From Geobacter metallireducens GS-15 (GTDB taxonomy: Bacteria > Desulfobacterota > Desulfuromonadia > Geobacterales > Geobacteraceae), in assembly GCF_000012925.1 (NCBI RefSeq), contig NC_007517.1, forward strand, positions 3,270,001-3,302,000: a DNA stretch of 32,000 nucleotides. Reading direction: 5' to 3'. Positions 846-24,700 of the stretch are shown here, piece after piece. A program made the translations under genes and the position numbers. The notes beneath the pieces were generated by a model, which had not been told where the DNA came from, did no database searches, and worked only from the letters and a program-made list of their open reading frames with translations. Positions within the stretch are counted from its first letter, which is position 1. The number at the start of each line of letters is the position of its first letter.

Positions 846-2012
846 TCATCGACGTGCAGCGAGCAGGATCACAAGATGCCGGTAGACCTCGGACAGCTCC
901 ATCCCCCTGGCGTGCCACGAGTGATTGTTTTCAGCGTGCTCGCGACCCAATTGACTGAGTCGAGCCCGTTCCTCGACATCGCCAGCCAGAGAGTCAATCC
1001 TCGCCGCCAGATCAACGGCATCGCCAAACCGTGCATACACCCCGGCATCACCGAGGATCTCCCGGTTGATGGGGGTGTCGAACACCACCGTGGGCAGCCC
1101 GCAGGCCATATAGTTGAAGAGCTTGCCGTTGGCCTCGGTGAGGGAAACCTTCGGCGACACGGCCAAATCCCCTGCCGAGAGGTAGAGCGGCGCCTTGGCA
1201 TAGTCGATACGTCCGGGGAAGGTCACCATGTCGTCAACGCCCAACTCTCGGGCCTTTTCGCGATAGCCCCCTTCAGGAAACCCCATGACCAGAAAGCGGA
1301 CCGGGCTCCCTTTGGCCTTGAGGATAACCATGGCAGAAAGGAGGAGATCGATCCCCTGGTAGCGGTTCAGGACCCCCAGAAAGACCACCAGCGGCGCGTG
1401 AGACGCGATGCCGAGCTTGCGGCGAACCTCGTCCCTGGGATAGGGGCGAAACACCGCCGTATCCACCCCATCCATGAAGGCCGTCACCTTGCGGGCCGGG
1501 ACGCCCCACTTACCGACGAGATCGTCCCGGCCGGCGCCGGAGCTGGTGATGATGGCATCGGCGTTGCGGTTGATCCATCCCTCAAGCCGGGCGAAGAAGC
1601 GGCAGAGAAGCGACCCTTGCCGCGCAAAGCCGTGGTCGGCCAGCTCTCCCGTGAGGCTCCCCTGGCAGTCGAAAAGGAGGGGAACACCGACGAGTCTCTT
1701 CAGGAAAACGCCAAGGAAGGCCCCCTCGTGGAGGTGGGCGTGGATCAGATCGGGGCGCATTCGCCGGGCGGCTCGCAGGGCGGTAACGAAGAGGAGGATG
1801 TCCAGGTACGGCTTGTGCCAGGAGGGACCGGCAGAGAGTTTCCGGTACCAGGGGATGCGCACGGTGCGGTCCGTGGCAATTCCGGGCATGTCGCGCCCCA
1901 GGTGATAGGTGGCGATCCGAACTTCGTGCCCACAGGCCATGAGCGCCCGGGCCTCCTCGTAAATCCTGACGTGGCACCCCCGGTCGGCAAAGAAAGGGGT
2001 TGGAGCCACCAT
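846..2012 (-). CDS. Glycosyltransferase family 4 (GT-B, group 1)
   Basis: ORF 846..2075. The conventional GT4 N-terminus MVAPTPFFADRGCHVR begins at ATG 2012. The C-terminal half shows the typical GT1/GT4 sequence pattern (EANGKLFNYMACGLPTV). The extension to GTG 2075 ([16 protein letters not shown]) is read from the heptad array and is probably not native. Confidence 0.8.
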   Translation of the reverse strand: MVAPTPFFADRGCHVRIYEEARALMACGHEVRIATYHLGRDMPGIATDRTVRIPWYRKLSAGPSWHKPYLDILLFVTALRAARRMRPDLIHAHLHEGAFLGVFLKRLVGVPLLFDCQGSLTGELADHGFARQGSLLCRFFARLEGWINRNADAIITSSGAGRDDLVGKWGVPARKVTAFMDGVDTAVFRPYPRDEVRRKLGIASHAPLVVFLGVLNRYQGIDLLLSAMVILKAKGSPVRFLVMGFPEGGYREKARELGVDDMVTFPGRIDYAKAPLYLSAGDLAVSPKVSLTEANGKLFNYMACGLPTVVFDTPINREILGDAGVYARFGDAVDLAARIDSLAGDVEERARLSQLGREHAENNHSWHARGMELSEVYRHLVILLAARR

Positions 2013-2031
2013 CAGGACGCGGAGCGTCCTC

Positions 2032-2067
2032 GGGACCGGGGACCGGGGACCGGGGACCGGGGAAAAA
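2032..2067. repeat. Heptad array A: GGGACC(GGGGACC)3GGGGAAAAA, left inverted repeat of the cassette
   Basis: Read directly from the sequence. It is the near-perfect reverse complement of 2465..2499. Confidence 0.95.
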
Positions 2068-2433
2068 CTAGTCACCTTGTGTCTCCTTGGTCCGGTAGTG
2101 GCGAATCAGGCCGTGGAGCATTTTGCGGAGTGACGCTATGCGGTTGAGAACAGACGTAACGTCCGCAATGTAGTTTAACTTATCAGCGATGATCAACTGA
2201 GTTTCAACTTCGGCAACCGAACCAAGAGCGATATAGAGAAACTGCACAAACTCCCTGTTCGTCTGCCTCGCGGCCCCTTCCGCAATATTCGACGGTATTG
2301 AGACTGCCGCCCGCCGCAACTGGTTTGTCAAACCATGCAGTTGTTCTTTCGGAAACGACTGAGTCGCAACATAAACCGACGTCACCAGCTCAACACCCGT
2401 TTTCCAAACATCCAACTCCTTATGATCCCGCAC
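2068..2433 (-). CDS. Four-helix-bundle protein, 23S rRNA intervening-sequence protein family (TIGR02436/PF05635-like; same fold family as DGR Avd)
   Basis: 121 aa. The signature LDVWK...QLRRAAVSIPSNIAEG...EF..FL.IA.GS..E is characteristic of this family. There is an AGGAGG RBS 4 nt upstream of GTG 2433. The stop at 2068 abuts array A. Confidence 0.85.
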   Translation of the reverse strand: MRDHKELDVWKTGVELVTSVYVATQSFPKEQLHGLTNQLRRAAVSIPSNIAEGAARQTNREFVQFLYIALGSVAEVETQLIIADKLNYIADVTSVLNRIASLRKMLHGLIRHYRTKETQGD

Positions 2434-2448
2434 AAATCCTCCTGACGG

Positions 2449-3450
2449 TCATAAGTCTTTGCGATTTTCCCGGTCCCCGGTCCCCGGTCCCCGGTCCCCT
2501 ACGTTGATTCGCTCGCGAATCACGTAAATCGGTTTCCCCTGCGCTTCGTAATAGGTGCGGGCGTTAAGCTCGCCGAGAAGGCCGAGAACGATGAACTGCA
2601 CCCCCATAAAGAGCAGGAACGCGGTGAGGATGAGGAGAGGGTTGCGATTCATGTTGATATGCTCGAAAAACTTGAAATAGAGGGTTGCTCCCCCGCTGAG
2701 AAAGCCCGCAAACAAGGTATAAATCCCCCACTTGCCGAAGAGCTGGATCGGCTTGGTGGAGTAGGCGAGGAGAAATTTCACCGTCATGAGGTCGAGGACC
2801 ACCCGCATGGTGCGGGAGATGCCGTACTTGCTCGTGCCGTGGAGCCGCGGATGATGCCGCACCGGCAGCTCCGTCACCCGCGCCCCCACTTGGGAGGCCA
2901 GGGCCGGCACGAAGCGGTGCATCTCGCCGTAGAGGTTCACCCCGTCGAGGACTTCCCGGCGGTAGGCCTTGAGGGTGCAGCCGTAGTCGTGGAGGTGGAC
3001 CCCGGTCATGCGGGAGATGAGGCCGTTGGCAATGATGGAGGGAAGCCGGCGGTTGATGAAGGTGTCCTGTCGGTCCTTGCGCCAGCCCGAGACCACGTCG
3101 TACCCTTCGTTGATCTTCGACAGGAGCATGGGGATGTCGGCCGGGTCGTTCTGAAGGTCGCCATCCATGGGGACGACAACTTCTCCCCGGGCGGCGTCGA
3201 AGCCGGCGGCCATGGCCGCTGTCTGCCCGAAATTGCGGCGGAAGCGGATCACCTTCACCCGCGAATCCCTCTCGGCAATCTGCCGCAGAAGCGGGAAAGA
3301 GCCGTCGCTGGAGCCGTCGTCCACCAGGATCAGCTCATAGTCGATGCCCGTCCCGGCCAGTGCTTCGGTAACCCGTCCATAGAGAGGGGGAATGTTCTCT
3401 TCTTCGTTGTAAATCGGTATAACGATACTCAGTTTCACCAAGGACCTCAC
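2449..3450 (-). CDS. GT2 polyprenyl-phosphate sugar synthase (DPM1/GtrB/ArnC-like)
   Basis: 333 aa. GT-A motifs are IVIPIYNEEENI, VDDGSSDGS and DGDLQNDP (DXD), followed by two C-terminal TM helices. The last ~17 codons ([16 protein letters not shown]) are read from array B and the cassette interior. There is a 4-nt overlap with the upstream gene. Confidence 0.85.
   Translation of the reverse strand: MRSLVKLSIVIPIYNEEENIPPLYGRVTEALAGTGIDYELILVDDGSSDGSFPLLRQIAERDSRVKVIRFRRNFGQTAAMAAGFDAARGEVVVPMDGDLQNDPADIPMLLSKINEGYDVVSGWRKDRQDTFINRRLPSIIANGLISRMTGVHLHDYGCTLKAYRREVLDGVNLYGEMHRFVPALASQVGARVTELPVRHHPRLHGTSKYGISRTMRVVLDLMTVKFLLAYSTKPIQLFGKWGIYTLFAGFLSGGATLYFKFFEHINMNRNPLLILTAFLLFMGVQFIVLGLLGELNARTYYEAQGKPIYVIRERINVGDRGPGTGDRENRKDL
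2465..2499. repeat. Heptad array B: TTTTCCC(GGTCCCC)4, right inverted repeat of the cassette
   Basis: Read directly from the sequence. It is the reverse complement of array A apart from one G. Confidence 0.95.
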
Positions 3451-4952
3451 TGGAGATTCGTCTTCTGCAAGGCAAGCCGCTCACGCAGGGCCGGAAGAGA
3501 TGCCTGAACATCCGCGGCCTCGCTAGGGTATTCCATGCCGCCGTACGCAGCAAAGAATTCGTAGTTTTTCACCGCCTCAGCCAGATTGCCCCGACGTTCC
3601 TCCGCCTTTGCCAGCGTCAGATACGCCCGGGTATTGAGGCGGTTCAGCCGTATTGCCTCCCGTGCATGGGCAACGGCCTTGTCAGTTTCGTCCGTCAGGA
3701 GATAGCTCAGGGCAACAGTCTCCTGAACCCAGGTCGAATCTGGATTCACCGCGACAGCATGGCGCCAGAGGGTATGCTCGGTGCGCCAGTATCCGTTCTG
3801 GATGGCGGTGAGAACGGCGAGGACGAGCAAAACGGCACAAAAGCCTGCCTCAACCTTCGCGCTTCTCAGTCTCTGGAGCAGCACGGCTAGGGCGAGGCCG
3901 ACACCGGGAAGGCAGAGATACATATACCTGTCGGCAGCCAAATAGGCAACCGGCACGAGGTTTGACACCGGCAACCAAAACACGAAAAACCAGCCGATCC
4001 CCAGCGACAGAAGGGGAAGGCGGCGGGCCGCCCGCACCATCACGGTCACCAGCACGACAAGGAGTGTACCGGAAAGAAGCGCCCACGGTTGCAGGAAACT
4101 CTCTGCCAGCCGGAACGTGTATTCAGGGGCAAGCCCCACGGGGAGGACGATCTTCCAGAGATAGAACCCGAATGCCGTCATCGACCCCATAAAAAGGGGA
4201 AGGTAGCTTCGGGAAGCCATGAAACTGTTCTTAGAGTAAATGGTCAGGAGCTGCTCGGGCCGGATGAACCCTCGGAACGTGTACAGCAGATACGCCGCGG
4301 CAATGGCTCCGGACACGGCAAGAAGCAGGGGGCGACGGAGGAGAATTCGCCGTTCCCGTGGCATCCCGTAACACTCCACGAGAATGACGAGCAGGGGAAG
4401 GGTAATCACCGTCTCGTTGGCAAGGAGCGCAACGACATAGCCTGCAACGGCAACGGCCATAAACGCCACCCGCCGTCCACCGGCCAAAGCGGCAGCCTTC
4501 ACATACCCGTAGAGCGAAACCAAGGAGAAGAAGAGCGTCAGGAGTTCCTTGCGGTGCGAAAGATTCGCAACCGATTCGGACTGGAGGGGGTGTACGAGGA
4601 AGAAAAGAGCACCCAACAGGGCGTACGGGAGTTCGACCCCGAGCAGTCCAAAGACCAGAACCAGAAGAAAACCGTTCATCCCGTGCCAGGCGAGCTGCTG
4701 AACCCGGTACCCCGCCGGCTTTTCACCGAACAGGTGATACTCCGGGATATAGGTCAGTTCCCGCAGGGGACGACCGGGGCGACTATTCTCAACAAAGCCT
4801 TTAAGGGAATGGGCGTCGGGGTTTTGCACAATGACCGGCACATCGTCATAGGTCCAGTCGTTGAGGAAGGTATTCCCGTACACCACCACGGTCGTCGCAA
4901 GGAAGAACAGCAGGACCGTTCTCTTCCTGATCCCTGTCAAACACCCGGTCAC
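3447..4952 (-). CDS. GT-C type membrane glycosyltransferase with C-terminal TPR repeats (PMT/TMTC/ArnT-like)
   Basis: 501 aa. The N-terminal region is polytopic, with an acidic first-loop motif NDWTYDDVPVIVQN. The C-terminus is TPR-like (AYLTLAKAEERRGNLAEAVKNYEFF). It is translationally coupled on both sides by ATGA-type overlaps. Confidence 0.7.
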   Translation of the reverse strand: MTGCLTGIRKRTVLLFFLATTVVVYGNTFLNDWTYDDVPVIVQNPDAHSLKGFVENSRPGRPLRELTYIPEYHLFGEKPAGYRVQQLAWHGMNGFLLVLVFGLLGVELPYALLGALFFLVHPLQSESVANLSHRKELLTLFFSLVSLYGYVKAAALAGGRRVAFMAVAVAGYVVALLANETVITLPLLVILVECYGMPRERRILLRRPLLLAVSGAIAAAYLLYTFRGFIRPEQLLTIYSKNSFMASRSYLPLFMGSMTAFGFYLWKIVLPVGLAPEYTFRLAESFLQPWALLSGTLLVVLVTVMVRAARRLPLLSLGIGWFFVFWLPVSNLVPVAYLAADRYMYLCLPGVGLALAVLLQRLRSAKVEAGFCAVLLVLAVLTAIQNGYWRTEHTLWRHAVAVNPDSTWVQETVALSYLLTDETDKAVAHAREAIRLNRLNTRAYLTLAKAEERRGNLAEAVKNYEFFAAYGGMEYPSEAADVQASLPALRERLALQKTNLQ

Positions 4953-6042: not shown

Positions 6043-8235
6043 TCAGAACGACTTTTTCATGGAGGCCATCAGGCGCTTCTCGACCCGTTCATCATCCTTG
6101 CGTTTTCCGTAACTGTAGTCGATATTGAACTGAAACTTGCGGAAATTGAGCCCCACATAACCGTTGTAGATGAATTCAGGGGCGTTTCTTGGCAGCAAGA
6201 GCGAATAAGCGACATTGCCGCCAAGGTACAGGTTTCGGAGCGGATAATACCGGGCGCCGAGCAGGAAGCGCTTCCTCCCCGTGGTCGTTGACGTTGACGA
6301 AATCGTGTCGCTCTGGGATATGGTGAACTCTTCGGTCAGCTCCAGAAGTTTACGCTGCTGGCCGCCCAACTGATAAAACGAATAGGTAAGCCTCTGCATC
6401 AGATCCACATAGGTGGAGTTGTTTCCCTTTTCGTCCCGTTTGTAAATCATATAGCGCACCAGGGCGTCAAGGGAGCGGTTCGGCGTATACTGGGCACTGC
6501 CGGTGTGCTGCAGATCGGTTGAGCGGCCATCGGCATTGCTGCGCAGAGAGACGCGATTTTCCATGTTCAAGCGCAGGTTGTCAAGGGTGTAGTCAACCCG
6601 GTTGCTAACCGTGGTCAGGTAGTCCGTAGTGGCCTGTGAACTCACGAGAACATCTTCGGTAGCAGTCAGGGAGACGGTTAACCGCGAAAGCGGGAGCCAG
6701 GAGAGGCCGGCAGTGGTGACGGAGCGGTAATAGTCATTGGGCTGCTCCTCACGGCGGAACACATCGTTTGAGTTGCCGAAGTTGGTCTGGGTAGTGATTG
6801 AGTAGCTGTCAGTCAGTGCCGCGCTGTTGCCCCGCACCGCGGTCACGGATTCATCGAGGTTCAAGGTCAGTTGCGGGTTTACCCGGTAACCGAGCCGTCC
6901 CCTGGCGTTCTGGAAGAGATAGCTTGACGCCCCCTCCCTCTCGGAATCGAGATAGCGGATATTGTAGCTCCCCCCCACGGTAAATTGGTCGGAAAAGCGT
7001 CTCGTGCTCATGGTCTCCAGCAGGGCTTCCAGTCCCAGGGTCTTTGTCCCGTTGGATTCGGCATCCTCGACCGTATACCGTTGGGAAAGGGTAAAGGGAG
7101 ACCGTTTGAAGCTCTCCAGCCGGAACATGGCACTGGTGTTGTTGTCGATCGTCGTTGTCAGGCGGTTCTGCTTTACCTCACGGTCGCGCCGGGTAACCGA
7201 CGCATTCCAACTGGAATCCATGCCGAACGCCCCCGACAGGTAGAGGGGGATGTTTCTCTCCAGGCGGATCTCGTTGCCCTCGCGCTCCCGGGAGAAGGTG
7301 AGAAAACTCCTGGCGTCCCAGTTCTTACGCTGGGCCATGGCAAAAAAGTTCACGTCATAGGCATCGTTATGACTGGCAGACCGCTTGGTGTACTGGAAAT
7401 CAGTGGAGATCTTGAGCCAGTTGGTGAGGTCGATCCAGCGGCGCTGGAGCGTGTGGTCCACGGTCCCCAACTGCACCTGGCTCTCCTGGTAGCTCTGGCC
7501 CGGGTTGATGTAGTCATCGAAGCGGGTGGTCCGGTAGTGGAACCAGTTGTCGCGCTTGTTGAGGCTGACAAAGGCAAGCTTGCGCAACCGGGTGTCGACC
7601 GGCGTGATGCTTCTCGAATCCTCGTGCCGCTCGTCCCGATAATCCAGGAGCACCATGGGGATGTGACGAAAAATGGCGTTATAGCCGTTGGTGAGGCCGT
7701 TTTTGACACCCAATACCATCGTTGCCCCGGTGAGGGTGTTGGTCCCGGTGCCGTTCAGGGAGGTAATGATGTTCGGCTCGAAAATCCGCCCACTCCTCCC
7801 CTCGGTCAGCAGAGAATCCATGGTGAACGTCGAGGTGGTCATGTCGCGGGAGTAAGCCTTGAGCTTCAGGGGAAGCTCGGCCGGATCCAGCACCAGTTCA
7901 CCGTTGAACAGGATCTTGCCGGCGCTCGTCGAAGGTTTCCACGTGGCGTTGTCCGCCGCGTTGTAGACCCGTGAATCGAAGGAGGCCCACTCGTAGCCGA
8001 GGGCGCCGTTGTAAAAGCCGAAGCGGTCGCTGTACAGTTCGCCGCTCTTTTCGTACAGCACTGAATAGCGCTGGCTGAAGGTATGGGCGTCGGTTACCGT
8101 CGTCCCCTTTTCCTGCGCCTCGTAGGAGACATAGTTCAGCTCTATATCGCCCCGCAGCCGCGCCGACGCGCGGGACGCCTGCAGCAGCACCGCAGACATC
8201 AGCAGAAACGTTATGAGGAGCGAGCGACGAATCAT
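6043..8235 (-). CDS. Large predicted outer-membrane beta-barrel protein (~705 aa mature)
   Basis: ORF 6043..8379. A plausible start is ATG 8235, giving the signal peptide MIRRSLLITFLLMSAVLLQASRASA. The sequence has an alternating, Y/N/S/T/R-rich composition. The terminal residue is Phe (...MKKSF), typical of OMP barrels. The ORF upstream of 8235 runs through terminator hairpins. Confidence 0.65.
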   Translation of the reverse strand: MIRRSLLITFLLMSAVLLQASRASARLRGDIELNYVSYEAQEKGTTVTDAHTFSQRYSVLYEKSGELYSDRFGFYNGALGYEWASFDSRVYNAADNATWKPSTSAGKILFNGELVLDPAELPLKLKAYSRDMTTSTFTMDSLLTEGRSGRIFEPNIITSLNGTGTNTLTGATMVLGVKNGLTNGYNAIFRHIPMVLLDYRDERHEDSRSITPVDTRLRKLAFVSLNKRDNWFHYRTTRFDDYINPGQSYQESQVQLGTVDHTLQRRWIDLTNWLKISTDFQYTKRSASHNDAYDVNFFAMAQRKNWDARSFLTFSREREGNEIRLERNIPLYLSGAFGMDSSWNASVTRRDREVKQNRLTTTIDNNTSAMFRLESFKRSPFTLSQRYTVEDAESNGTKTLGLEALLETMSTRRFSDQFTVGGSYNIRYLDSEREGASSYLFQNARGRLGYRVNPQLTLNLDESVTAVRGNSAALTDSYSITTQTNFGNSNDVFRREEQPNDYYRSVTTAGLSWLPLSRLTVSLTATEDVLVSSQATTDYLTTVSNRVDYTLDNLRLNMENRVSLRSNADGRSTDLQHTGSAQYTPNRSLDALVRYMIYKRDEKGNNSTYVDLMQRLTYSFYQLGGQQRKLLELTEEFTISQSDTISSTSTTTGRKRFLLGARYYPLRNLYLGGNVAYSLLLPRNAPEFIYNGYVGLNFRKFQFNIDYSYGKRKDDERVEKRLMASMKKSF

Positions 8236-10697: not shown

Positions 10698-10731
10698 TTT
10701 CCCGGTCCCTGGTCCCCAATCCCCAGTCCCG
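10698..10731. repeat. Heptad array C (degenerate): TTTCCC GGTCCCT GGTCCCC AATCCCC AGTCCCG
   Basis: Read directly. It has the same orientation and the same GGGAAA tail as array B. It sits in the 78-nt spacer between the octahaem gene's stop (10735) and the NHL gene's start (10656). Confidence 0.85.
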
Positions 10732-10734
10732 GCC

Positions 10735-11727
10735 TCACTTATTATGACACATCTGGCAGAGCAGCAACCGGTCCTCGGAGTTATTGACGAAGAAATACCG
10801 CGCATCACCCGCATGGGGGTTGTGGCATGAGATGCACGACATCTCCCGGCCGGTCTTGGGGGCCGACGGATCCTTTGCACCGCTCACCGGGTGCCCCGCG
10901 CCGGTGGTGGTGCGCACCACGTGGGGAGTTTTCTTGATGGATTCGTGGCACGACAGGCAGAGCTCGTTGATGGGAGCCTTGAGCTGCCCATAATTGGCGC
11001 TGCCATGGGAATCGTGGCAGACCTCGCACATCCCGCCGGCAATGGGACCGTGGATATACTTCCGCTTGGCGAACTCGGCGGCCTTGTCGCCGTGGCACTC
11101 GTTGCACAGGGGGGCCTCCCGCTTGGTCACCACGTACTTGGGCGTCGCCTTTTCCTTGTGGCAATAACCGCAGGAGTAGGTGCCGGCGGGGCCATGGACG
11201 AATTTCACGTCGAGCATTTTCCGGTGGCAGCCGATGCAGGGGTTTTCCTTGGCCAGGGTACTCAAGGACTTGTCGGATGAGGGGGCCATGTCGTGACATC
11301 CGACGCACCGGGCCTCCAAATCCGGCTGGTGAAACGAATTCGCCTTGAATTCCGGAGGGATATCGGACGCTTTGGCGCCTGGCGCGAAGTAGACCGATGC
11401 CTGGGCCGTTTCCGCGCGGCTCTTGCCGATGAACGTTTCCACTGTCACTTCGTTGCGGCCACGATCCCACACCGGTTGCACAATAAGAAAATCCTGGAAG
11501 GCCCGTCGGTACTCCGGCGAGCCGACCACGAGGAGATCGCTGACAACTCCGTTCACCCCGATCCGGACGCCGGTGACCTCGGTACTGTTCAGCTTGAGAA
11601 TCAGATGATTGGAGTTCTCGACCCAGGCATTCGGCGCGGGATAGATAAAGGAGACCCCCCCGAACGCCACGGCTGCCCACCCGAGAAACACCGCTGTCAC
11701 GACTCCTGTTATCCCTCTCCGGGACAT
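10735..11727 (-). CDS. Octahaem c-type cytochrome with an N-terminal non-haem domain
   Basis: ORF 10735..11922. A start at ATG 11727 has a GGAGG RBS and gives the signal/anchor MSRRGITGVVTAVFLGWAAVAFG. There are eight CXXCH motifs in the C-terminal ~200 aa. Confidence 0.85.
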   Translation of the reverse strand: MSRRGITGVVTAVFLGWAAVAFGGVSFIYPAPNAWVENSNHLILKLNSTEVTGVRIGVNGVVSDLLVVGSPEYRRAFQDFLIVQPVWDRGRNEVTVETFIGKSRAETAQASVYFAPGAKASDIPPEFKANSFHQPDLEARCVGCHDMAPSSDKSLSTLAKENPCIGCHRKMLDVKFVHGPAGTYSCGYCHKEKATPKYVVTKREAPLCNECHGDKAAEFAKRKYIHGPIAGGMCEVCHDSHGSANYGQLKAPINELCLSCHESIKKTPHVVRTTTGAGHPVSGAKDPSAPKTGREMSCISCHNPHAGDARYFFVNNSEDRLLLCQMCHNK

Positions 11728-11738
11728 GGTTCCTCCAT

Positions 11739-12749
11739 CTAGGGATTTCTCACTGCCCGAAGACGGTCGTATGACTTGGGCTTGTGACACCCTGCAACAC
11801 AGGTGCCGCCGGTATCGGTTTTCGTATAACGGATGGGAATCTCCCACGTGCCGAAACCGGGAATCCTCTCCTTGATGAGCCGCGGCTGCAATGCCGCATG
11901 GGGATCGTGACAGGTCTTGCACGAACGTCCCTTGTCGGGCTTGTTGATGTGAAGATTGTGCAGGTTACGGTCGCCGTTACGGAATCCGGTGATGGTATCG
12001 GTACGCTTGTCCTGGGCAAGATCCTTTGTGTGACAGTCGAAGCAGAGGGCGAAGTTTTCCTGGGCATAGGGGAGATAGAACTGTTCGGGAAAAGCGTTTT
12101 TCAGAATCTTGTAAAAGGGCGAACCGTGAGGGGCGTGACAGTCGGTACACCCCCCTGCGGCTACCGGACCATGAATTGACACCCCCTCTGCCATTTTTTT
12201 GTCATGGCAGATAAAACAGAGCCCGGCGCCACTCCCCTTGAGGAGCGCACGATTATCGGACTGATGAGGATCGTGGCACCCGAGGCATGAGCCCTCAGCC
12301 ACCGGCGCATGCCGATGCGTTGCCTTGAATTTTTCCTCATCATGGCAGCCGAAGCAGAGCGCTGCCCCGTCCGCCTTGAGCTGCATCCGGTAGGGGGACT
12401 GGTGCACATCGTGGCAATCGAGACATGCCCCCTTGGCTACAGGCGGGTGAACCACCTTCTTGTCCGCCTTTCCTTCGTGGCAGACGGAGCACAGCTTCGC
12501 CCCCTCGGCAACAAGTCGGAACGCTCCGCGCTGTTTCGGATGCTCCAGGCCGGTGGGGTTATGGCAGGAGATACAGTCGTCGGACCCCACGGGGCCATGC
12601 ACAAAAGCCTCCCGCACCTTGCTCTTATGGCAGCGGGTATTGCAGCCGTCGGGCACGCCAGGCAGGGAAGATGCTGCCGCAAAGCCGCCCGTCAACAGCA
12701 GCCAGAATGCGGCTGCAGTAACGGAAAGGAAGAGAGGGGATGCTGTCAT
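11739..12749 (-). CDS. Multihaem c-type cytochrome (9 CXXCH plus 2 CX3CH motifs)
   Basis: ORF 11739..12863. A start at ATG 12749 gives the signal peptide MTASPLFLSVTAAAFWLLLTGGFAAASS. The motifs in order are CNTRCH, nine CXXCH, then CVAGCH. Confidence 0.85.
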   Translation of the reverse strand: MTASPLFLSVTAAAFWLLLTGGFAAASSLPGVPDGCNTRCHKSKVREAFVHGPVGSDDCISCHNPTGLEHPKQRGAFRLVAEGAKLCSVCHEGKADKKVVHPPVAKGACLDCHDVHQSPYRMQLKADGAALCFGCHDEEKFKATHRHAPVAEGSCLGCHDPHQSDNRALLKGSGAGLCFICHDKKMAEGVSIHGPVAAGGCTDCHAPHGSPFYKILKNAFPEQFYLPYAQENFALCFDCHTKDLAQDKRTDTITGFRNGDRNLHNLHINKPDKGRSCKTCHDPHAALQPRLIKERIPGFGTWEIPIRYTKTDTGGTCVAGCHKPKSYDRLRAVRNP

Positions 12750-19222: not shown

Positions 19223-20497
19223 TCAGATTGTATGCGGGAAATTGATATGCTGCAGAAAGTGCTTCTCGAAGGCTGGGGTGCCGGAAAGTGGTATGACGCG
19301 GATCGTTCCGGCAAGATGGTCAACCGCCGCAAGCCCCCCGGAGGTAAGGAGCGCGTGCTCAACGCCGCGAAGCGCCCCTTCCCGGACGAAACTCGTCGTT
19401 TGTACCATGTTTTCCGTGAAGACTCCAAGGCTTTTTAGGCTATGCGGGTCGAGAACGGCGCCGAAGGAGCCGGTCAGGACCACGCTCCCCACCGCCCCGC
19501 TTTCGATCCCCGCCCGGTCGAACAGAACCTCCATGCCGGCCCGGATCGCCCCCTTGGCCAGCTGCACCTGACGGATGTCCTCCTGGGAGAGCCAGACCGT
19601 CCTCGTCGCATCCCGATGGAGCACGAAGGCCCGCTCATCCCCCATGGTCGTAAGCCGGTTGCCGATGCTCGACGGGATCTCCTCCGGCGGCAGGAGCCGG
19701 CCGGTGGAGTCGATGGCCCCCTGATCGAGGAGCAATGCAATGGCCGAAAGGACGCCGGAGCCGCAGATGCCCGTGGCCGGCTTCCCCTCGACGGTCGAGA
19801 CGAGCAGGCGCTCACCGTCAAAAGTCACCCCGCTGATGGCACCGGGAAGCGCCGCCATGCCGCACGAAAGGTTCCCTCCCTCAAAGGCAGGGCCGGCCGC
19901 GGCAGAGGTGGCGAGGAGCTTTCCGTCCGCCGCCAGGGCGATCTCGCCATTGGTTCCCATATCGAGGTAAAGACGGGGACCAGGGACCGGGGACCGGGGA
20001 CCGGGAACGCCATGGAGGAACGCCACGGTGTCGCCGCCGACAAAGCCGCCGGGGAGGGGAAAGAGGAATACCTCAGCCGGAAGATCCCAGCCGAGCCCAA
20101 CAGCGGGAACGGTTTTGCCGGCGGTGAAGAGGGGACGGTACGGGGGGAACGCGAGGGCATCAACCGGAAGGTCCAGCAGAAGATGCTCCATGGCGGGATT
20201 GCCGGCCACCGCTATAGTGACGAGGTGCTCCGGAGATCTCCCGACGCTCTCCAGAAGCTCCCCCGCCAGGCGGCCAATCGCCCCGCGGACCAACTCCGCC
20301 ATCCGGTGTCGAGCCTCTTTGGAACGGCAGGCGGCATCGAGGCGCGCAATGACATCGGCACCGAATTCACGCTGGGGGTTCAGGCTGCCGGCAACGGCCA
20401 ACCGCTCGCCGGTGGCCATATCGAGGAGGGAGGCGGCCAGGGTCGTGGTGCCAAGGTCAACGGCAATGGCAAGCCGATCAGGCGATGACAACGGCAT
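19223..20497 (-). CDS. ASKHA-fold protein, DUF4445 family (RACo C-terminal-domain-like), carrying an in-frame heptad array
   Basis: ORF 19223..20536. The likely start is [19 protein letters not shown] (ATG 20497). The ASKHA phosphate motifs DLGTTT and DMGTNGE are present. There is no N-terminal ferredoxin domain. It overlaps the selD 3' end by 20 nt. Confidence 0.75.
19975..20007. repeat. Heptad array D: GGGGACC AGGGACC GGGGACC GGGGACC GGGAA, inside a coding sequence
   Basis: Read directly. It encodes [12 protein letters not shown] just upstream of the DMGTNGE motif. It shares 31 identical nt with array E. Confidence 0.95.
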
Positions 20498-21509
20498 GCT
20501 CCCGGGGAGGGAGAACCCCACCCACGGCGACGGCAAAGAGCCCTCGGTCCCGGGCCATGGAGAGGAAGGAGTCGGCGAATTGCGGCGAAAGGGTGATGAG
20601 GAGCCCCCCGGAGGTCTGGGGGTCGAAGAGGGGGATGAGCCGGCCTCCCGCCCCGGCGGAAACGGAGACTAAGGGGGTATAGTGATCGCGGTTGCGGTAG
20701 CAGCCGGCCGGCACGAGGCCATCGGCCACAAGGTCCTCGACTCCTCCCATGAGGGGAACGGCGTCAAGGGCGATTTCGAGGGTAACGCCGGCTCCCCGGG
20801 CCATCTCGCAGGCATGCCCCAGAAGGCCGAAACCGGTGACATCGGTGCAGGCGGAAGCCTCGCATTCCAGCATGAGCCCCGCAGCCGAAGCGTTCAGGAG
20901 CGCCATCCAGCGGATCGCTTCGTCGACAACGCCGGGTGCAACCATGTCGGCCTTGATGGCCGTGGAGACTATCCCCGTCCCCAGGGGCTTGGTGAGGATG
21001 AGCCTGTCGCCGGGGCGGGCCGTGGAGTTGCGCACGATCCGCCCGGGGCTGATGAGACCGGTGACCGAGAGACCGTATTTCAGCTCGTGGTCCTCCACCG
21101 TGTGCCCCCCCACGAGGCAGGCCCCCGCCTCCCGCACCGCGTCAAGGCCACCGGCCATGATGTCGGCCAGGATCTGTCCCGGCAGGGTGCAGGCCGGGAA
21201 GAAGGCCAGGTTCATGGCGGTCACCGGCCTTCCACCCATGGCGTAGACATCGGAGAGGGCGTTGGCCGCCGCAATCCGGCCGAAAGTGAACGGGTCATCC
21301 ACCAGGGGGGTGATGATATCCACCGTATCCACCAGGGCGAGCCCCTCCCCTATCCGGTAGACCCCCGCGTCGTCGGCGGTCTCCGGCCCCACGAGGAGGT
21401 TCGGATCGTCTCCCTTCCCCAGGATGCCGCTCAGTGCGTCTTCCAGGCCCGCCGGGCCCAGCTTGGCCGCTCAGCCGGCCGCTTTTACGAGGGATGTCAG
21501 CTTGATCAT
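20478..21509 (-). CDS. selD: Selenide, water dikinase (selenophosphate synthetase) with an in-frame UGA selenocysteine codon at 21471-21473
   Basis: I joined ORF 20478..21392 to the last 12 codons of ORF 21471..21884, which are in the same frame. The result is [51 protein letters not shown]. This matches the SelD N-terminal glycine-rich loop, where Sec or Cys sits (E. coli: GAGCGCK...DPNLLVGNETRDDAAVY). Confidence 0.85.
21443..21473 (-). promoter_or_regulatory. UGA(Sec) codon plus a downstream GC-rich hairpin (SECIS candidate)
   Basis: The mRNA reads UGA GCGGCCAAG CUGGGCCC-GGC-GGGCCUGG. An 8-bp stem (including G-U pairs) starts 10 nt after the UGA, which is the position expected for a bacterial SECIS. 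Confidence 0.5.
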
Positions 21510-22799: not shown

Positions 22800-22951
22800 A
22801 AGCAGCCTGCTGGGGGAGTTCTTCGAGAACTGAGACGGGCACCGCCCGAACCCTTACCACCTGATCCGGGTAATGCCGGCGTAGGGAAGCGGCCAGAGAC
22901 CTCGTTTACCTCGTTGAGTTCTGGGACCGTGACCATCGTCACGGTTTTTTT
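22800..22951 (+). ncRNA. TPP (THI-box) riboswitch with a terminator expression platform
   Basis: The conserved THI-box core is CUGGGGGAG...CUGAGA...ACCCUUACCACCUGAUCCGGGUAAUGCCGGCGUAGGGAAG. It is followed by the hairpin ACCGTGAC-catc-GTCACGGT and a T7 run (22926-22951). Confidence 0.9.
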
Positions 22952-22966
22952 GTTTGGGAGATCACC

Positions 22967-24460
22967 ATGGGCAGCAACGGCCACAATCTCCGGCTGGTCG
23001 TCAATCGCGACAAGCAGGACTCCCCCATCCGGGGGGTGTACCTGGTCACCGACCACGGCGACCGTCTCGCGGAGCGGGTGGAGGCGGCAATCGACGGCGG
23101 GGTCCGCATCGTCCAATACCGGAACAAGGGAAAGGACCGGGCCCAGCGCTACGCCGTGGGTGAGGAACTACGGGACCTCTGCAGCCGGCGGGGGGTGATC
23201 TTCATCGTCAACGACGACCTGGATCTGGCGCTGCAACTCAAGGCCGATGGCATCCACCTGGGGCAGGAGGACGGCGACCCCCGTATTGCCCGGCGCGAAC
23301 TGGGACCGGGTAGAATCATCGGCGTCTCCACCCATACCATGGAAGAAGCCCTGGCGGCCCAGGCGGCGGGGGCCGACTACATCGGCTTCGGCGCCATGTT
23401 CCCCACCAACAGCAAGGAGATCGGGCACCTGGCCGGGCCCGAGGGGCTCGCCGCCATCCGCAGCCGAATCATGATCCCCATTGTTGCCATCGGCGGCATC
23501 AGCCGGGACAACGGCCCACGGGTGGTCGACGCCGGAGCCGACGCCCTGGCGGTCATCTCGGCGGTTCTCGCCCATCCGGACCCGTTCCTGGCCGCGACGG
23601 AGCTGGGCCTTCTCTTCAACCGGCGCGCACCACATCCCCGGGGGGCTGTGCTCACCATTGCAGGAAGTGACTCGGGGGGCGGAGCCGGCATCCAGGCCGA
23701 CCTCAAGACCGCGACACTGCTGGGGAGCTACGGCTCATCGGTCATCACGGCGCTCACTGCCCAGAATACCCGGGGGGTCTCCGGCATTCACGGCGTCCCC
23801 CCCTCCTTCGTGGCCGAGCAGCTCGATGCGGTCCTTTCCGACATCCCCGTGGACACGGTAAAGACCGGCATGCTCTTCTCTGCCGAAATCATCGCCACCG
23901 TGGCCGACAAGCTGGCCGAGTACCGGAAGCGGATCGTGGTGGTGGACCCGGTCATGGTCGCCAAGGGAGGCGCCCCCCTCATCGACCGGGGAGCCGTGAA
24001 CGTCCTCAAGGACCGCCTCATGCCCCGCACCTACCTCCTCACCCCCAACATCCCCGAGGCGGAACGGCTCACGGGGCTCACCATCGTCGACGAAGAGGGA
24101 ATGCAGGAGGCGGCCCGGCGCCTCTTCCGTCTCGGTGCCCGCAACGTCCTCGTCAAGGGGGGGCATCTGGTGGCCGGTGATGCGGTGGACATCCTCTTCG
24201 ACGGCTCCGCCTTCCACCGTTTCACCGCGCCCCGCATCCTCAGCAAGAACACCCACGGAACCGGCTGCACCTACGCCGCGGCCATCGCCACCTACCTGGC
24301 CCAGGGAGAGCCGCTCCGGGAGGCCGTTGGCCGCGCCAAGGAGTTCGTCACCGCCGCAATCCGCCTGGGCCAGCCCCTGGGCCGGGGGCACGGACCGGTG
24401 AACCACCTCCTCGCCGCGCTTGAAGTCGGGGACCAGGGACCGGGGACCGGGGACCGGTAA
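22967..24460 (+). CDS. thiED: Fused thiamine-phosphate synthase (ThiE, N-terminal) / hydroxymethylpyrimidine-phosphomethylpyrimidine kinase (ThiD, C-terminal)
   Basis: 497 aa. ThiE motifs are GVYLVTD, IVQYRNK and GADYIGFGAMFPT. ThiD motifs are VLTIAGSDSGGGAGIQADLKT and HGTGCTYAAAIA. The last 10 codons ([10 protein letters not shown]) are heptad array E. Confidence 0.9.
   Translation: MGSNGHNLRLVVNRDKQDSPIRGVYLVTDHGDRLAERVEAAIDGGVRIVQYRNKGKDRAQRYAVGEELRDLCSRRGVIFIVNDDLDLALQLKADGIHLGQEDGDPRIARRELGPGRIIGVSTHTMEEALAAQAAGADYIGFGAMFPTNSKEIGHLAGPEGLAAIRSRIMIPIVAIGGISRDNGPRVVDAGADALAVISAVLAHPDPFLAATELGLLFNRRAPHPRGAVLTIAGSDSGGGAGIQADLKTATLLGSYGSSVITALTAQNTRGVSGIHGVPPSFVAEQLDAVLSDIPVDTVKTGMLFSAEIIATVADKLAEYRKRIVVVDPVMVAKGGAPLIDRGAVNVLKDRLMPRTYLLTPNIPEAERLTGLTIVDEEGMQEAARRLFRLGARNVLVKGGHLVAGDAVDILFDGSAFHRFTAPRILSKNTHGTGCTYAAAIATYLAQGEPLREAVGRAKEFVTAAIRLGQPLGRGHGPVNHLLAALEVGDQGPGTGDR
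24428..24457. repeat. Heptad array E: GGGGACC AGGGACC GGGGACC GGGGACC GG, followed by the TAA stop
   Basis: Read directly. It has the same orientation as arrays A and D. Confidence 0.95.
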
Positions 24461-24482
24461 TACCGTTTTGTCCAACCAGATC

Positions 24483-24664
24483 CGTGAGGCGAGGGAGCCT
24501 GACGGAGCGAATGCGCCCTCTTTCGTCGCCGCTCTTGGCGACATGGAGCGGCCACAGCCGATCGTGTCCGAACCCGCAGGGTGAGTTGATCGGCTGTAGC
24601 GTAACGAGCCTTAGAGCGGCAGAAGGAGGGCGCTCTGAGCGGAGGCAGGTTTCCTCGCCTCACG
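24483..24664 (+). other. Unclassified ~180-nt element of nested helices between thiED and thiC
   Basis: P1 pairs 24483-24494 (CGTGAGGCGAGG) with 24653-24664 (CCTCGCCTCACG). P2 pairs 24513-24520 (GCGCCCTC) with 24626-24633 (GAGGGCGC). The P3 hairpin is GTCGCC/GGCGAC (24525-24542). P4 pairs ACAGCCGATC with GATCGGCTGT (24554-24597). A GAGCGG motif recurs four times (once as GAGCGA). Confidence 0.6.
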
Positions 24665-24700
24665 AATTCAGCGTTCAATCAAACCAAGGAGTATCAGCAC

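Follow-up and report, generated by a model that had tools for sequence, protein, structure and literature searches.

The element described here is a 468-bp unit at positions 2032-2499 of a 32,000-nt stretch of the Geobacter metallireducens GS-15 genome (NC_007517.1; hereafter the window, within which positions are counted), in which one small gene, Gmet_2891, lies between mirror-image (GGGGACC)4 arrays. Each of its components belongs to a described group. The protein family, to which we refer as IVP, for intervening sequence (IVS) protein, and which is also named S23p, has been known since 1993, includes solved structures and counts many thousands of members, and we know of no function for it outside diversity-generating retroelements (DGRs). 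For bacterial tandem heptanucleotide repeats, that is, the short tandemly repeated repetitive (STRR) sequences, the H4 elements of Geobacter and the heptamers of Xanthomonas and Nostoc, there is to our knowledge no established role. The nearest described arrangement is the IVS of 23S rRNA, which in Coxiella is 428-444 nt long, has a 28-bp terminal stem, carries an S23p open reading frame (ORF) in its loop and is excised by RNase III (Warrier et al. 2016, PMC4990558). Outside rRNA, IVP genes have been seen wedged among cas genes, e.g. between cmr3 and cmr2 (Zhang and Ye 2013, PMC3936711). On the side of the repeats, Aklujkar et al. (2009) listed 49 'Gmet_H4##' elements of four GGGACCG repeats with a GGGAAAA tail, located between and within genes of G. 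metallireducens, and treated them as single putative regulatory RNA elements (PMC2700814). Rehm et al. (2015) described GGGAATC in Xanthomonas and GGGGA(C/T)T in Nostoc, with a preference for four units, G-quadruplex formation in vitro and 70-75 convergent inverted pairs per Xanthomonas genome, and reported no associated gene (PMC4692102).

The Geobacter unit resembles the 23S rRNA IVSs of Leptospira, Coxiella burnetii and Haemophilus in the PF05635 'S23p' protein of its loop, in its size (468 nt, against the 428-444 nt of Coxiella and a median of 497 nt for the family described below) and in terminal inverted repeats that close a long stem (34 bp here, 28 bp in Coxiella). It differs in its host, a protein-coding operon instead of helix 9, 25 or 45 of 23S rRNA; in its arms, which are tandem heptamer arrays translated within the neighbouring genes; and in its ORF, which is under purifying selection whereas that of Coxiella is decaying. 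RNase III excision is known for the Coxiella element and would rest on analogy here. Judged by the layout of the loci compared below, the unit is typical of a widespread kind of IVS-like cassette that resides in operons and not in rRNA. Its parts and its two host genes, in the order of transcription, are as follows.

2449-3450, minus strand: GT2-family (glycosyltransferase family 2, ArnC-like) gene Gmet_2892, the upstream host
2465-2499, minus strand: G-arm (5' arm in the sense of transcription), (GGGGACC)4 followed by a GGGAAAA tail, Gmet_H437
2434-2464, minus strand: leader of the four-helix-bundle gene, within the loop, with the GT2 stop TGA (2451-2449) and AGGAGG (2443-2438)
2068-2433, minus strand: Gmet_2891, four-helix-bundle protein of 121 aa (PF05635 / TIGR02436 / NF008911)
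2073-2088, minus strand: alternative GT4 start GTG (2075-2073) with AAGGAG (2088-2083) 7 nt upstream, within the 3' end of the IVP ORF
2032-2067, minus strand: C-arm (3' arm in the sense of transcription), UUUUUCCCC(GGUCCCC)3GGUCCC, Gmet_H436
2015-2029, minus strand: small hairpin of 6 bp (GGACGC-tcc-GCGTCC), following the C-arm and ahead of the GT4 ATG
846-2012, minus strand: GT4-family (glycosyltransferase family 4) gene Gmet_2890, the downstream host, from ATG 2012 (MVAPTPFF)

On the forward strand the left array (2032-2067) reads GGGACC(GGGGACC)3GGGGAAAAA and the right array (2465-2499) TTTTCCC(GGTCCCC)4. Tandem Repeats Finder assigns both a period of 7, 4.4-4.6 copies and 100% matches, and together they make up an inverted repeat of 34 nt with 97% complementarity and 399 nt between the arms. 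The window contains 14 occurrences of the 14-mer GGGGACCGGGGACC, allowing up to one mismatch, where shuffles give an expectation of 0.12. A single ORF lies between the arms (2068-2433, minus strand), starting with GTG at 2433 behind an AGGAGG at 2438-2443 and ending in a TAG (2068-2070) that touches the left array. The GT2 gene reads through the right array, so that the G-arm forms its last codons; ..YVIRERIN is the end of its conserved part, the cassette encodes the last ~16 residues, and its TGA stop lies 15 nt ahead of the start of the small gene. The C-arm begins directly 3' of the IVP stop codon and lies inside an extended GT4 reading frame, which is open through the left array to GTG 2075 and gives a 21-residue N-terminal extension; GGGGACC contains no stop codon on either strand. 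An initial annotation, made from the letters of the window, had given the array sequences, the ~34-nt inverted repeat, the single enclosed gene with its AGGAGG and the positions of its GTG and stop, all of which hold to the base, and reading of the ORFs also confirms its statements that GT2 crosses the right array and that the GT4 frame can be extended through the left one. The ~34-bp duplex that it predicted for the minus-sense RNA, looping out the ORF, is recovered by folding: the stem closes around the ORF at a predicted -216.4 kcal/mol (z = -5.71) and is present in both the minimum free energy and the centroid folds. Scanning found no promoter-like or terminator-like site inside or next to the cassette, and no U-tract follows the stem, the C-arm being followed by GAGGACGCUCC. 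At gathering thresholds, Rfam models match only a thiamine pyrophosphate (TPP) riboswitch and a tRNA in the window, with nothing at the cassette and no rRNA. As a motif match only, (GGGGACC)4 fits the G-quadruplex pattern of four tracts of at least three G with loops of 1-7 nt.

The identity of Gmet_2891 is clear from profile and structure comparisons. It matches Pfam PF05635 (E = 1.2e-36, 125.5 bits, cutoff 33.8), TIGR02436 (E = 1.1e-36, 125.3 bits, cutoff 24) and NCBIfam NF008911 (168.2 bits, cutoff 137); PF05635 is its only Pfam match and there is no match to an HUH/Y1 transposase. The closest solved relative is XCC0516 (PDB 2GSC, E = 2.9e-25). An AlphaFold2 model (pLDDT 94.8) has four helices and superposes on 2GSC with a TM-score of 0.88-0.93, on BT_0352 (2RLD) with ~0.8, and on the DGR protein Avd (4DWL and the ribonucleoprotein chains of the 8UB7 series) with 0.75-0.82 at 15-20% identity. 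The family motif R..S...N..E is kept, with R41, S45, N49 and E52 invariant, and the solved homologues 2GSC, 2RLD and 4DWL are pentamers. Since the model superposes on 2GSC, 2RLD and Avd, and Pfam, TIGRFAM and NCBIfam agree, the label of 23S-IVS protein with an Avd-like four-helix-bundle fold given in the initial annotation is correct. Beside Gmet_2891 there is neither an adjacent reverse transcriptase nor a pair of template and variable repeats, as a DGR has. We considered XCC0516 as the protein of the carA-carB cassette described below and rejected it; it looks like a paralogue of the carA-carB protein.

To see the family apart from the arrays, we took 80 metagenome loci chosen solely by peptide patterns of the IVP protein. 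In the 59 loci with 150-nt flanks, the duplex energy between upstream and downstream flanks had a median of -75.6 kcal/mol, against -55.9 kcal/mol for cross-locus pairs (Mann-Whitney p = 4e-10), and 39% of the loci lay beyond the 5th percentile of the control. Inspected by eye, the strongest loci all have tandem heptamers in inverted arrays close against the ORF, each locus with a unit of its own (GTGATGG, GTGAGGG, GGGATAT, CTCGTGA, GAGTGAC, GTTGATG, CGTAACG, GTGGGAA and GGGGACT). Tandem Repeats Finder, applied to the 60 loci with enough flank, reported an upstream array in 46, a downstream array in 50, both in 40 and none in 4; the period was 7 in 37 of the 48 upstream and 52 of the 61 downstream arrays, and array density was 7.57 per kb in the flanks against 1.05 per kb elsewhere. 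In 22 of 34 loci (65%, 14 of them exact) the upstream and downstream units are reverse complements, allowing one mismatch, compared with 8.2% across loci. The arms share further traits: the upstream arm is purine-rich (0.66 against 0.37 downstream), a GTGA core is present in 20 of 48 upstream units, the median number of units per arm is 4.4, and the medians place the end of the upstream array 21.5 nt before the start codon and the beginning of the downstream array 6 nt after the stop. Cassettes have a median length of 497 nt (range 403-642), of which the window cassette with its 468 nt is typical. The neighbours on both sides are co-directional in 24 of the 34 loci whose flanks are long, and certain junctions recur: gmd-fcl three times with different arms, rfbB-rfbA, wzm-wzt, rfaE-gmhB and others. 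Among the further period-7 arrays of a cassette's contig, 36% have the unit of that cassette, against 8% across contigs, which parallels the 49 dispersed copies in G. metallireducens. As far as these flanks show, a gene between inverted heptamer arrays is the norm for the IVP family across phyla.

Two explanations of the arms were discarded along the way. A stop codon lies inside 38 of 48 upstream units and 12 of 61 downstream units, but provision of stops in all frames as the purpose of the upstream arm cannot account for the window cassette, because its unit is stop-free in both directions. G-quadruplex formation as the general cause of the roughly four units was likewise rejected: most cassettes have units that are not G-rich and do not fit the motif, yet have ~4.4 units per arm.

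A scan led by the arrays instead of the protein, for three GGGACCR units with one genome per species, listed at least 120 stretches, in Xanthomonadaceae, Rhodanobacteraceae, Acidobacteriota, Gemmatimonadota, Geobacteraceae and others. Among the matches listed, adjacent arrays are convergent, with the G-arm first, in 36 cases and divergent in 5; an IVP gene is enclosed by each of the three convergent pairs that are widest (369-399 nt); and an IVP gene is present in 5 of 121 array-bearing stretches. The three widest pairs are those of the window, of Pseudoxanthomonas wuyuanensis and of Xanthomonas codiaei. In the two xanthomonads the cassette lies between carA and carB and has identical GGGGACC arrays, and carA reads through the G-arm, its stop overlapping the IVP start. 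The xanthomonad IVP in turn continues across the C-arm, and that of P. wuyuanensis has a stop codon overlapping the carB ATG. Both IVPs are 41-43% identical to Gmet_2891, and the GGGGACC array including its GGGAAAA tail is thus found in both Geobacter and Xanthomonadaceae. Variant cassettes with degenerate or different heptamers occur on one Methylomirabilota and one Verrucomicrobiota contig. A metagenomic Geobacter contig (L122) has a second IVP gene with purine-rich and pyrimidine-rich arms after another GT2 gene, i.e. two cassettes with different arms in one operon. Cultured examples include Nostoc punctiforme pNPUN02 (arms GTCAGGA/TCCTGAC), Nostoc edaphicum (TAGGGAG/CTCCCTA) and Riemerella anatipestifer (GGTTCAA/TTGAACC), and homologues are present on cyanobacterial plasmids. 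Hence other four-helix-bundle genes bracketed by such arrays, which the initial annotation had proposed to look for, are many. The short convergent pairs enclose loops of 18-212 nt that show no relation to one another or to the IVP gene, and we rejected the idea that gene-less hairpin pairs are deletion derivatives of the cassette. Two related arrangements were also seen. An Acidobacteriota locus (L116, 5275-5743) encodes an RNase H-like domain in a longer frame, with the arrays in C-arm then G-arm order and translated as Gly/Pro-rich linkers. A Methylomirabilota contig (L095) carries at 6715-6780 a loopless G-arm plus C-arm in frame within a Wzt-like ABC-transporter ATPase, immediately downstream of an IVP cassette with degenerate arms.

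The site in Geobacter is informative because both empty and filled versions exist. The operon neighbours are GT2, a tetratricopeptide-repeat (TPR) membrane protein, GT4 and a MarR-type regulator, and the orthologous loci have the same set. Across Geobacteraceae GT2 is 84-96% identical and normally 314-316 aa long. Empty GT2-GT4 junctions, without array and without small gene, are found in G. hydrogenophilus, G. sulfurreducens and G. benzoatilyticus, where GT2 ends in ..INLSDG*, ..INLDEG* and ..INLGEG*, respectively, and GT4 starts 21-24 nt after the end of GT2 at a GTG (MKVLMVAPTPFF and similar). In the window, homology of GT2 ends after ..RERIN, the old last four codons and stop being replaced by the array-encoded tail, and the ancestral GT4 start has mutated from GTG AAG GTT CTC ATG to CTC CGC GTC CTG ATG. 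About 39 nt of the old junction have been replaced, and no target-site duplication is visible at the filled site compared with the empty ones. The absence of array-encoded termini from the cassette-free orthologues bears out the earlier proposal that an insertion remodelled both glycosyltransferase ends. The filled arrangement recurs in five other sources, Geobacteraceae genomes or contigs, with IVP identities to Gmet_2891 of 99% (G. grbiciae), 85% (metagenomic Geobacter contig L123), 78-81% (L122), 68-70% (Geomobilimonas luticola) and 63-64% (Geobacter sp. AOG1). Comparison of these junctions shows that an ancestor of several Geobacteraceae acquired the unit between GT2 and GT4, and that the insertion rewrote the ends of both genes. 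GT2 identities are 96, 89, 86 and 86% for filled sites and 89, 88 and 86% for empty sites; presence or absence of the cassette therefore does not track GT2 similarity, indicating several gains, losses or transfers. The empty spacers (L204, L205 and L207, at about 3940-3975) are G-rich with a rough 7-nt spacing of GGG, e.g. GGGTGAA GGGTAGA GGGGCAC in G. benzoatilyticus; this could reflect no more than the ribosome-binding region of GT4, or else the remnant of an array or its seed. Contig L123 stops at 4403, inside the C-arm, which is probably an assembly failure at the inverted arrays, and such cassettes may be under-assembled in short-read data.

Since the insertion, protein and arms have been maintained together. 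Pairwise dN/dS of the small ORF is 0.08-0.13, and purifying selection of this strength indicates that the IVP protein is functional. Between the window and L123 or L122, dS ranges from 0.76 to about 2, yet both arrays are identical, and the leader (2434-2464) has diverged in the same two contigs whereas the arrays have not. Where the unit differs, the two arms have changed in step: the window has GGGGACC/GGTCCCC, G. luticola GGGGACT/AGTCCCC, and AOG1 GGGACTC and GGGATCC with GAGTCCC and GGATCCC. The AOG1 G-arm (L208, 3990-4180) is expanded, with ~28 units in ~200 nt, compared with ~8 in the C-arm. The hairpin at 2015-2029 shows compensatory changes, being GGACGC/GCGTCC in the window, GCACGC/GCGTGC in L122 and GAACCC/GGGTTC in G. 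luticola. These alignments show arms that stay complementary while the unit drifts, in a module kept since its insertion along with a protein under purifying selection. In another locus (L159, about 2797-3100) the 3' end of IVP and the C-arm are tandemly repeated, the module measuring ~87 nt by estimate.

Within G. metallireducens the two arms are the published elements H436 and H437, as their sequences and the neighbours Gmet_2890 to Gmet_2892 match (PMC2700814, Fig. S2 and Table S4). H436 is listed there at 3272024-3272068 on the plus strand as '3' of Gmet_2891, within Gmet_2890' and H437 at 3272462-3272506 on the minus strand as 'within Gmet_2892'; Gmet_2891 is named 'conserved hypothetical protein', the flanking pair is not linked to the gene and the pairing is not commented on. 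The caveat in the initial annotation that the genome paper might already have characterised this architecture thus holds for the arrays, published as a 49-member family, and not for their link to Gmet_2891. Our genome-wide counts are derived from the supplement of that paper: by the coordinates of Fig. S2, 22 of the 49 H4 elements form 11 pairs, in every one of which the G-arm precedes the C-arm; the gaps measure 0-195 nt except in the eleventh and widest pair (393 nt), which is the only one to enclose a gene. Neither the 11 pairs nor the gene-enclosing one were reported in 2009. Solo arrays and gene-less hairpin pairs with the GGGGACC unit are dispersed at other gene junctions of the genome, and the window contains three further solo arrays, which the initial annotation had missed.

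10700-10733: H438, starting directly after the stop of the ORF at 10735-11922 (minus strand)
19974-20005: H439, in frame inside the ORF at 19223-20536 (minus strand)
24427-24457: H440, forming the last codons of the thiE/thiD ORF

H439 places 12 residues just before a 10-residue motif, a case of a stop-free GGGGACC array tolerated within a protein, and in the published H4 alignment many members start 5-6 nt past a stop codon. Looked at for enclosed IVP genes, other paired repeat classes of the same genome are listed between ordinary neighbours and as IS110 targets (PMC2700814, Table S4). 'Class 1' paired octamer arrays (GTTGCTYN) very often hold ISGme8 of the IS110 family (same table), so that paired tandem-repeat arrays act as insertion targets for another mobile element.

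Comparison with other known systems sharpens what is distinctive. The heptamers of Rehm et al. and the cyanobacterial STRR sequences are alike in being tandem heptamers with a preference for four units at junctions of co-directional genes, and the GGGGACT arms of G. luticola match GGGGA(C/T)T; they differ in having been read as G-quadruplex elements, while the arrays described here bracket one gene family and mostly have units that are not G-rich. Avd is alike in fold and in belonging to a pentamer-forming family; it differs in the low sequence identity and in the reverse transcriptase and repeats that Gmet_2891 lacks. In REPIN-RAYT systems, a tyrosine transposase gene (RAYT) is flanked by doublets of a repetitive extragenic palindromic (REP) sequence, which is also dispersed intergenically, often as hairpin-forming doublets. 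The likeness, one gene flanked by inverted copies of a dispersed short repeat, is one of architecture only: the protein here is a four-helix bundle without an HUH/Y1 motif, the repeats are tandem heptamer arrays and not single imperfect palindromes, and mobilisation is conjectural. Rickettsia palindromic elements and MITEs (miniature transposable elements with inverted repeats) insert in frame into genes. H4 arrays inside reading frames, as at 19974-20005 and in the GT2 tail, similarly add short peptide linkers; the cassette differs from these elements in the lack of a target-site duplication and in encoding a conserved protein.

The reading that we favour, at slightly better than even confidence and by analogy with rRNA, is that the unit would be an IVS-like hairpin module in an operon, cut by RNase III and thereby separating messages. 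In the minus-sense polycistronic RNA the arms would pair as a ~34-bp perfect duplex, which the host RNase III would cut as it does in rRNA IVSs, leaving the GT2, IVP and GT4 messages to independent decay and translation; the GT4 message would be protected by the small hairpin at 2015-2029, which cleavage would place at its new 5' end. Translation through the G-arm in GT2 and through the C-arm in the extended GT4 frame would melt the stem, and cleavage would then depend on the level of operon translation. The IVP protein, from a pentameric family whose member Avd works in an RNA-protein complex, probably acts on arrays of the same kind. RNase III cleavage seems the most economical proposal because rRNA IVSs share size, build and cargo with the unit. 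Nothing points to the 'self-processing' insert of the initial annotation; any cutting would be the work of host RNase III, by analogy with the rRNA IVS (PMC4990558).

Several considerations weigh against this reading. Cutting by RNase III, uncoupling of the messages and protection of the 5' end are each inferred by analogy, and binding of the arrays by the protein, probable as we think it, is conjecture. Here as in the xanthomonads both arms are translated, and ribosomes may hold the stem open most of the time. The G-arm, made ~430 nt before the C-arm, could fold first as an RNA G-quadruplex, as related heptamers do in vitro (PMC4692102). A minority of cassettes (L199, L142, L094, L157 and L175) has reversed polarity or direct arms. 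Finally, in the aligned arms of 43 loci, mismatches that would be G:U in the sense RNA number 74 against 97 A:C, and this absence of a G:U excess gives no sign of selection on the sense RNA; the test is weak, since tandem arms pair in several registers, but the complementarity could thus be maintained on the level of DNA or through conversion of one arm by the other.

A different account, which can coexist with RNase III cutting and which we hold only tentatively, likens the cassette to REPIN-RAYT: the arrays would be sites or substrates of the pentameric protein, which would regulate itself at its own flanking pair and act in trans on the ~47 other operon-junction arrays, in RNA processing, in regulation or in the maintenance and spread of the arrays. 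The gene does lie between inverted copies of a repeat dispersed 49 times, background arrays on the same contig share the unit of the cassette, and the protein is under purifying selection; ~4.4 units per arm stand beside pentameric homologues, a GTGA core recurs in upstream units, and the DGR ribonucleoprotein (8UB7 and related entries) contains Avd, which shares the fold. Against this, the protein has no known catalytic motif, its action on the arrays is conjecture, and few of the array-bearing stretches listed contain an IVP gene. Moreover, identical GGGGACC arrays in Geobacter and the xanthomonads surround IVPs of only 41-43% identity, so that either the specificity of protein for unit is loose or the arms are adopted from the resident repeats of the host. 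It is possible, though we find it doubtful, that the cassette is mobile, as the initial annotation suggested, with arms that serve as terminal inverted repeats or portable homology, and spreads by recombination into resident hairpins (loop swapping) or by reverse transcription of the excised RNA. Filled and empty sites with a patchy distribution relative to GT2 similarity support this part of the suggestion, as do the unrelated insertion sites, all of them gene junctions (GT2-GT4, carA-carB, gmd-fcl three times, rfbB-rfbA, wzm-wzt and cmr3-cmr2, the last from PMC3936711), the two differently armed cassettes of the L122 operon, the array and GGGAAAA tail common to Geobacter and Xanthomonadaceae, the plasmid-borne homologues in cyanobacteria, and the mobile-IVS idea of Ralph and McClelland, as a passage of PMC4990558 cites it. 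On the other hand, the GT2-GT4 junction lacks a target-site duplication and no transposase, integrase or reverse transcriptase adjoins the cassette; this copy looks old and vertically kept, with IVP identity falling from 99% to 63-64% across hosts at a dN/dS of ~0.1, and the unrelated loops of the gene-less hairpins show that these are not simple deletion derivatives.

That two solo G-quadruplex or i-motif elements flank the small gene by chance is improbable in our view. Solo arrays are common, (GGGGACC)4 fits the motif of four G3+ tracts with N1-7 loops, and related heptamers with the same four-unit preference form G-quadruplexes in vitro (PMC4692102), but most IVP cassettes have units such as GTGATGG, AGTGAAA or CGTAACG, which are not G-rich and nevertheless come in ~4.4 copies with complementary arms. 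The arms also co-vary at one site, and pairs have a biased orientation, in 11 of 11 cases in G. metallireducens and 36 against 5 elsewhere among the matches listed. A neutral by-product, i.e. functionless, slippage-prone repeats present by chance or hitch-hiking, is highly improbable, and so is its variant, already disfavoured, in which the hairpin is merely an intrinsic terminator. Heptanucleotide repeats are, according to a passage of PMC4679880 citing other work, the commonest long simple repeats in many bacterial genomes, and arm length varies freely, as in the ~200-nt G-arm of AOG1. However, arrays identical across lineages with nearly saturated synonymous sites, their 7-fold enrichment beside IVP genes and the reverse-complement units (65% against 8% across loci) argue against neutrality, and the missing U-tract and terminator-like site argue against the terminator.

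There is also a broader proposal, which we consider unlikely. PF05635 proteins and dispersed tandem-heptamer arrays (Geobacter H4, the Xanthomonas and Nostoc 'G4' heptamers and STRR-type repeats) would form a widespread two-part system comparable to REPIN-RAYT, each protein having its gene in the loop between two of its own arrays in inverted orientation; the pentamer would handle those arrays at numerous operon junctions, processing or protecting RNA, or would work like Avd with a reverse transcriptase that copies and spreads arrays and cassette. If this were true, the ORF-bearing rRNA IVSs would be a special case, in which a cassette landed in an rRNA hairpin loop.

Other features of the window deserve brief mention. 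SelD (selenophosphate synthetase; 20478-21509, minus strand) has an in-frame TGA at the conserved Cys/Sec position, for which reason the mechanical ORF list starts the gene too late, at 21392; the protein probably contains selenocysteine. The TPP riboswitch noted above lies at 22802-22904, ahead of thiE/thiD, and scores 75 bits. The thiC leader (24470-24690) contains a 22-nt inverted repeat (24480-24501 and 24646-24667) with no Rfam match even at E<=1.

In the openly searchable full-text literature we found no description of PF05635 genes outside rRNA bracketed by inverted heptamer arrays, and no link of the Geobacter H4 elements or, by similarity of unit, of Rehm-type repeats to an IVP gene. 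Arrays, protein family and rRNA IVS topology are each known; we could not find their union in mRNA operons described, and to that extent it is new. The cassettes have practical consequences, as they rewrite the ends of neighbouring genes, including the annotated GT2 and GT4 termini and the carA tails, and break assemblies, as where contig L123 ends in an array. They sit preferentially in polysaccharide, ABC-exporter and defence loci. The layout physically ties together two puzzles that have been studied separately, the IVP/S23p family and the tandem heptamers, and gives a testable handle on both in a genetically tractable Geobacter. It may also recast rRNA intervening sequences as one habitat of a more general cassette that dwells in operons.

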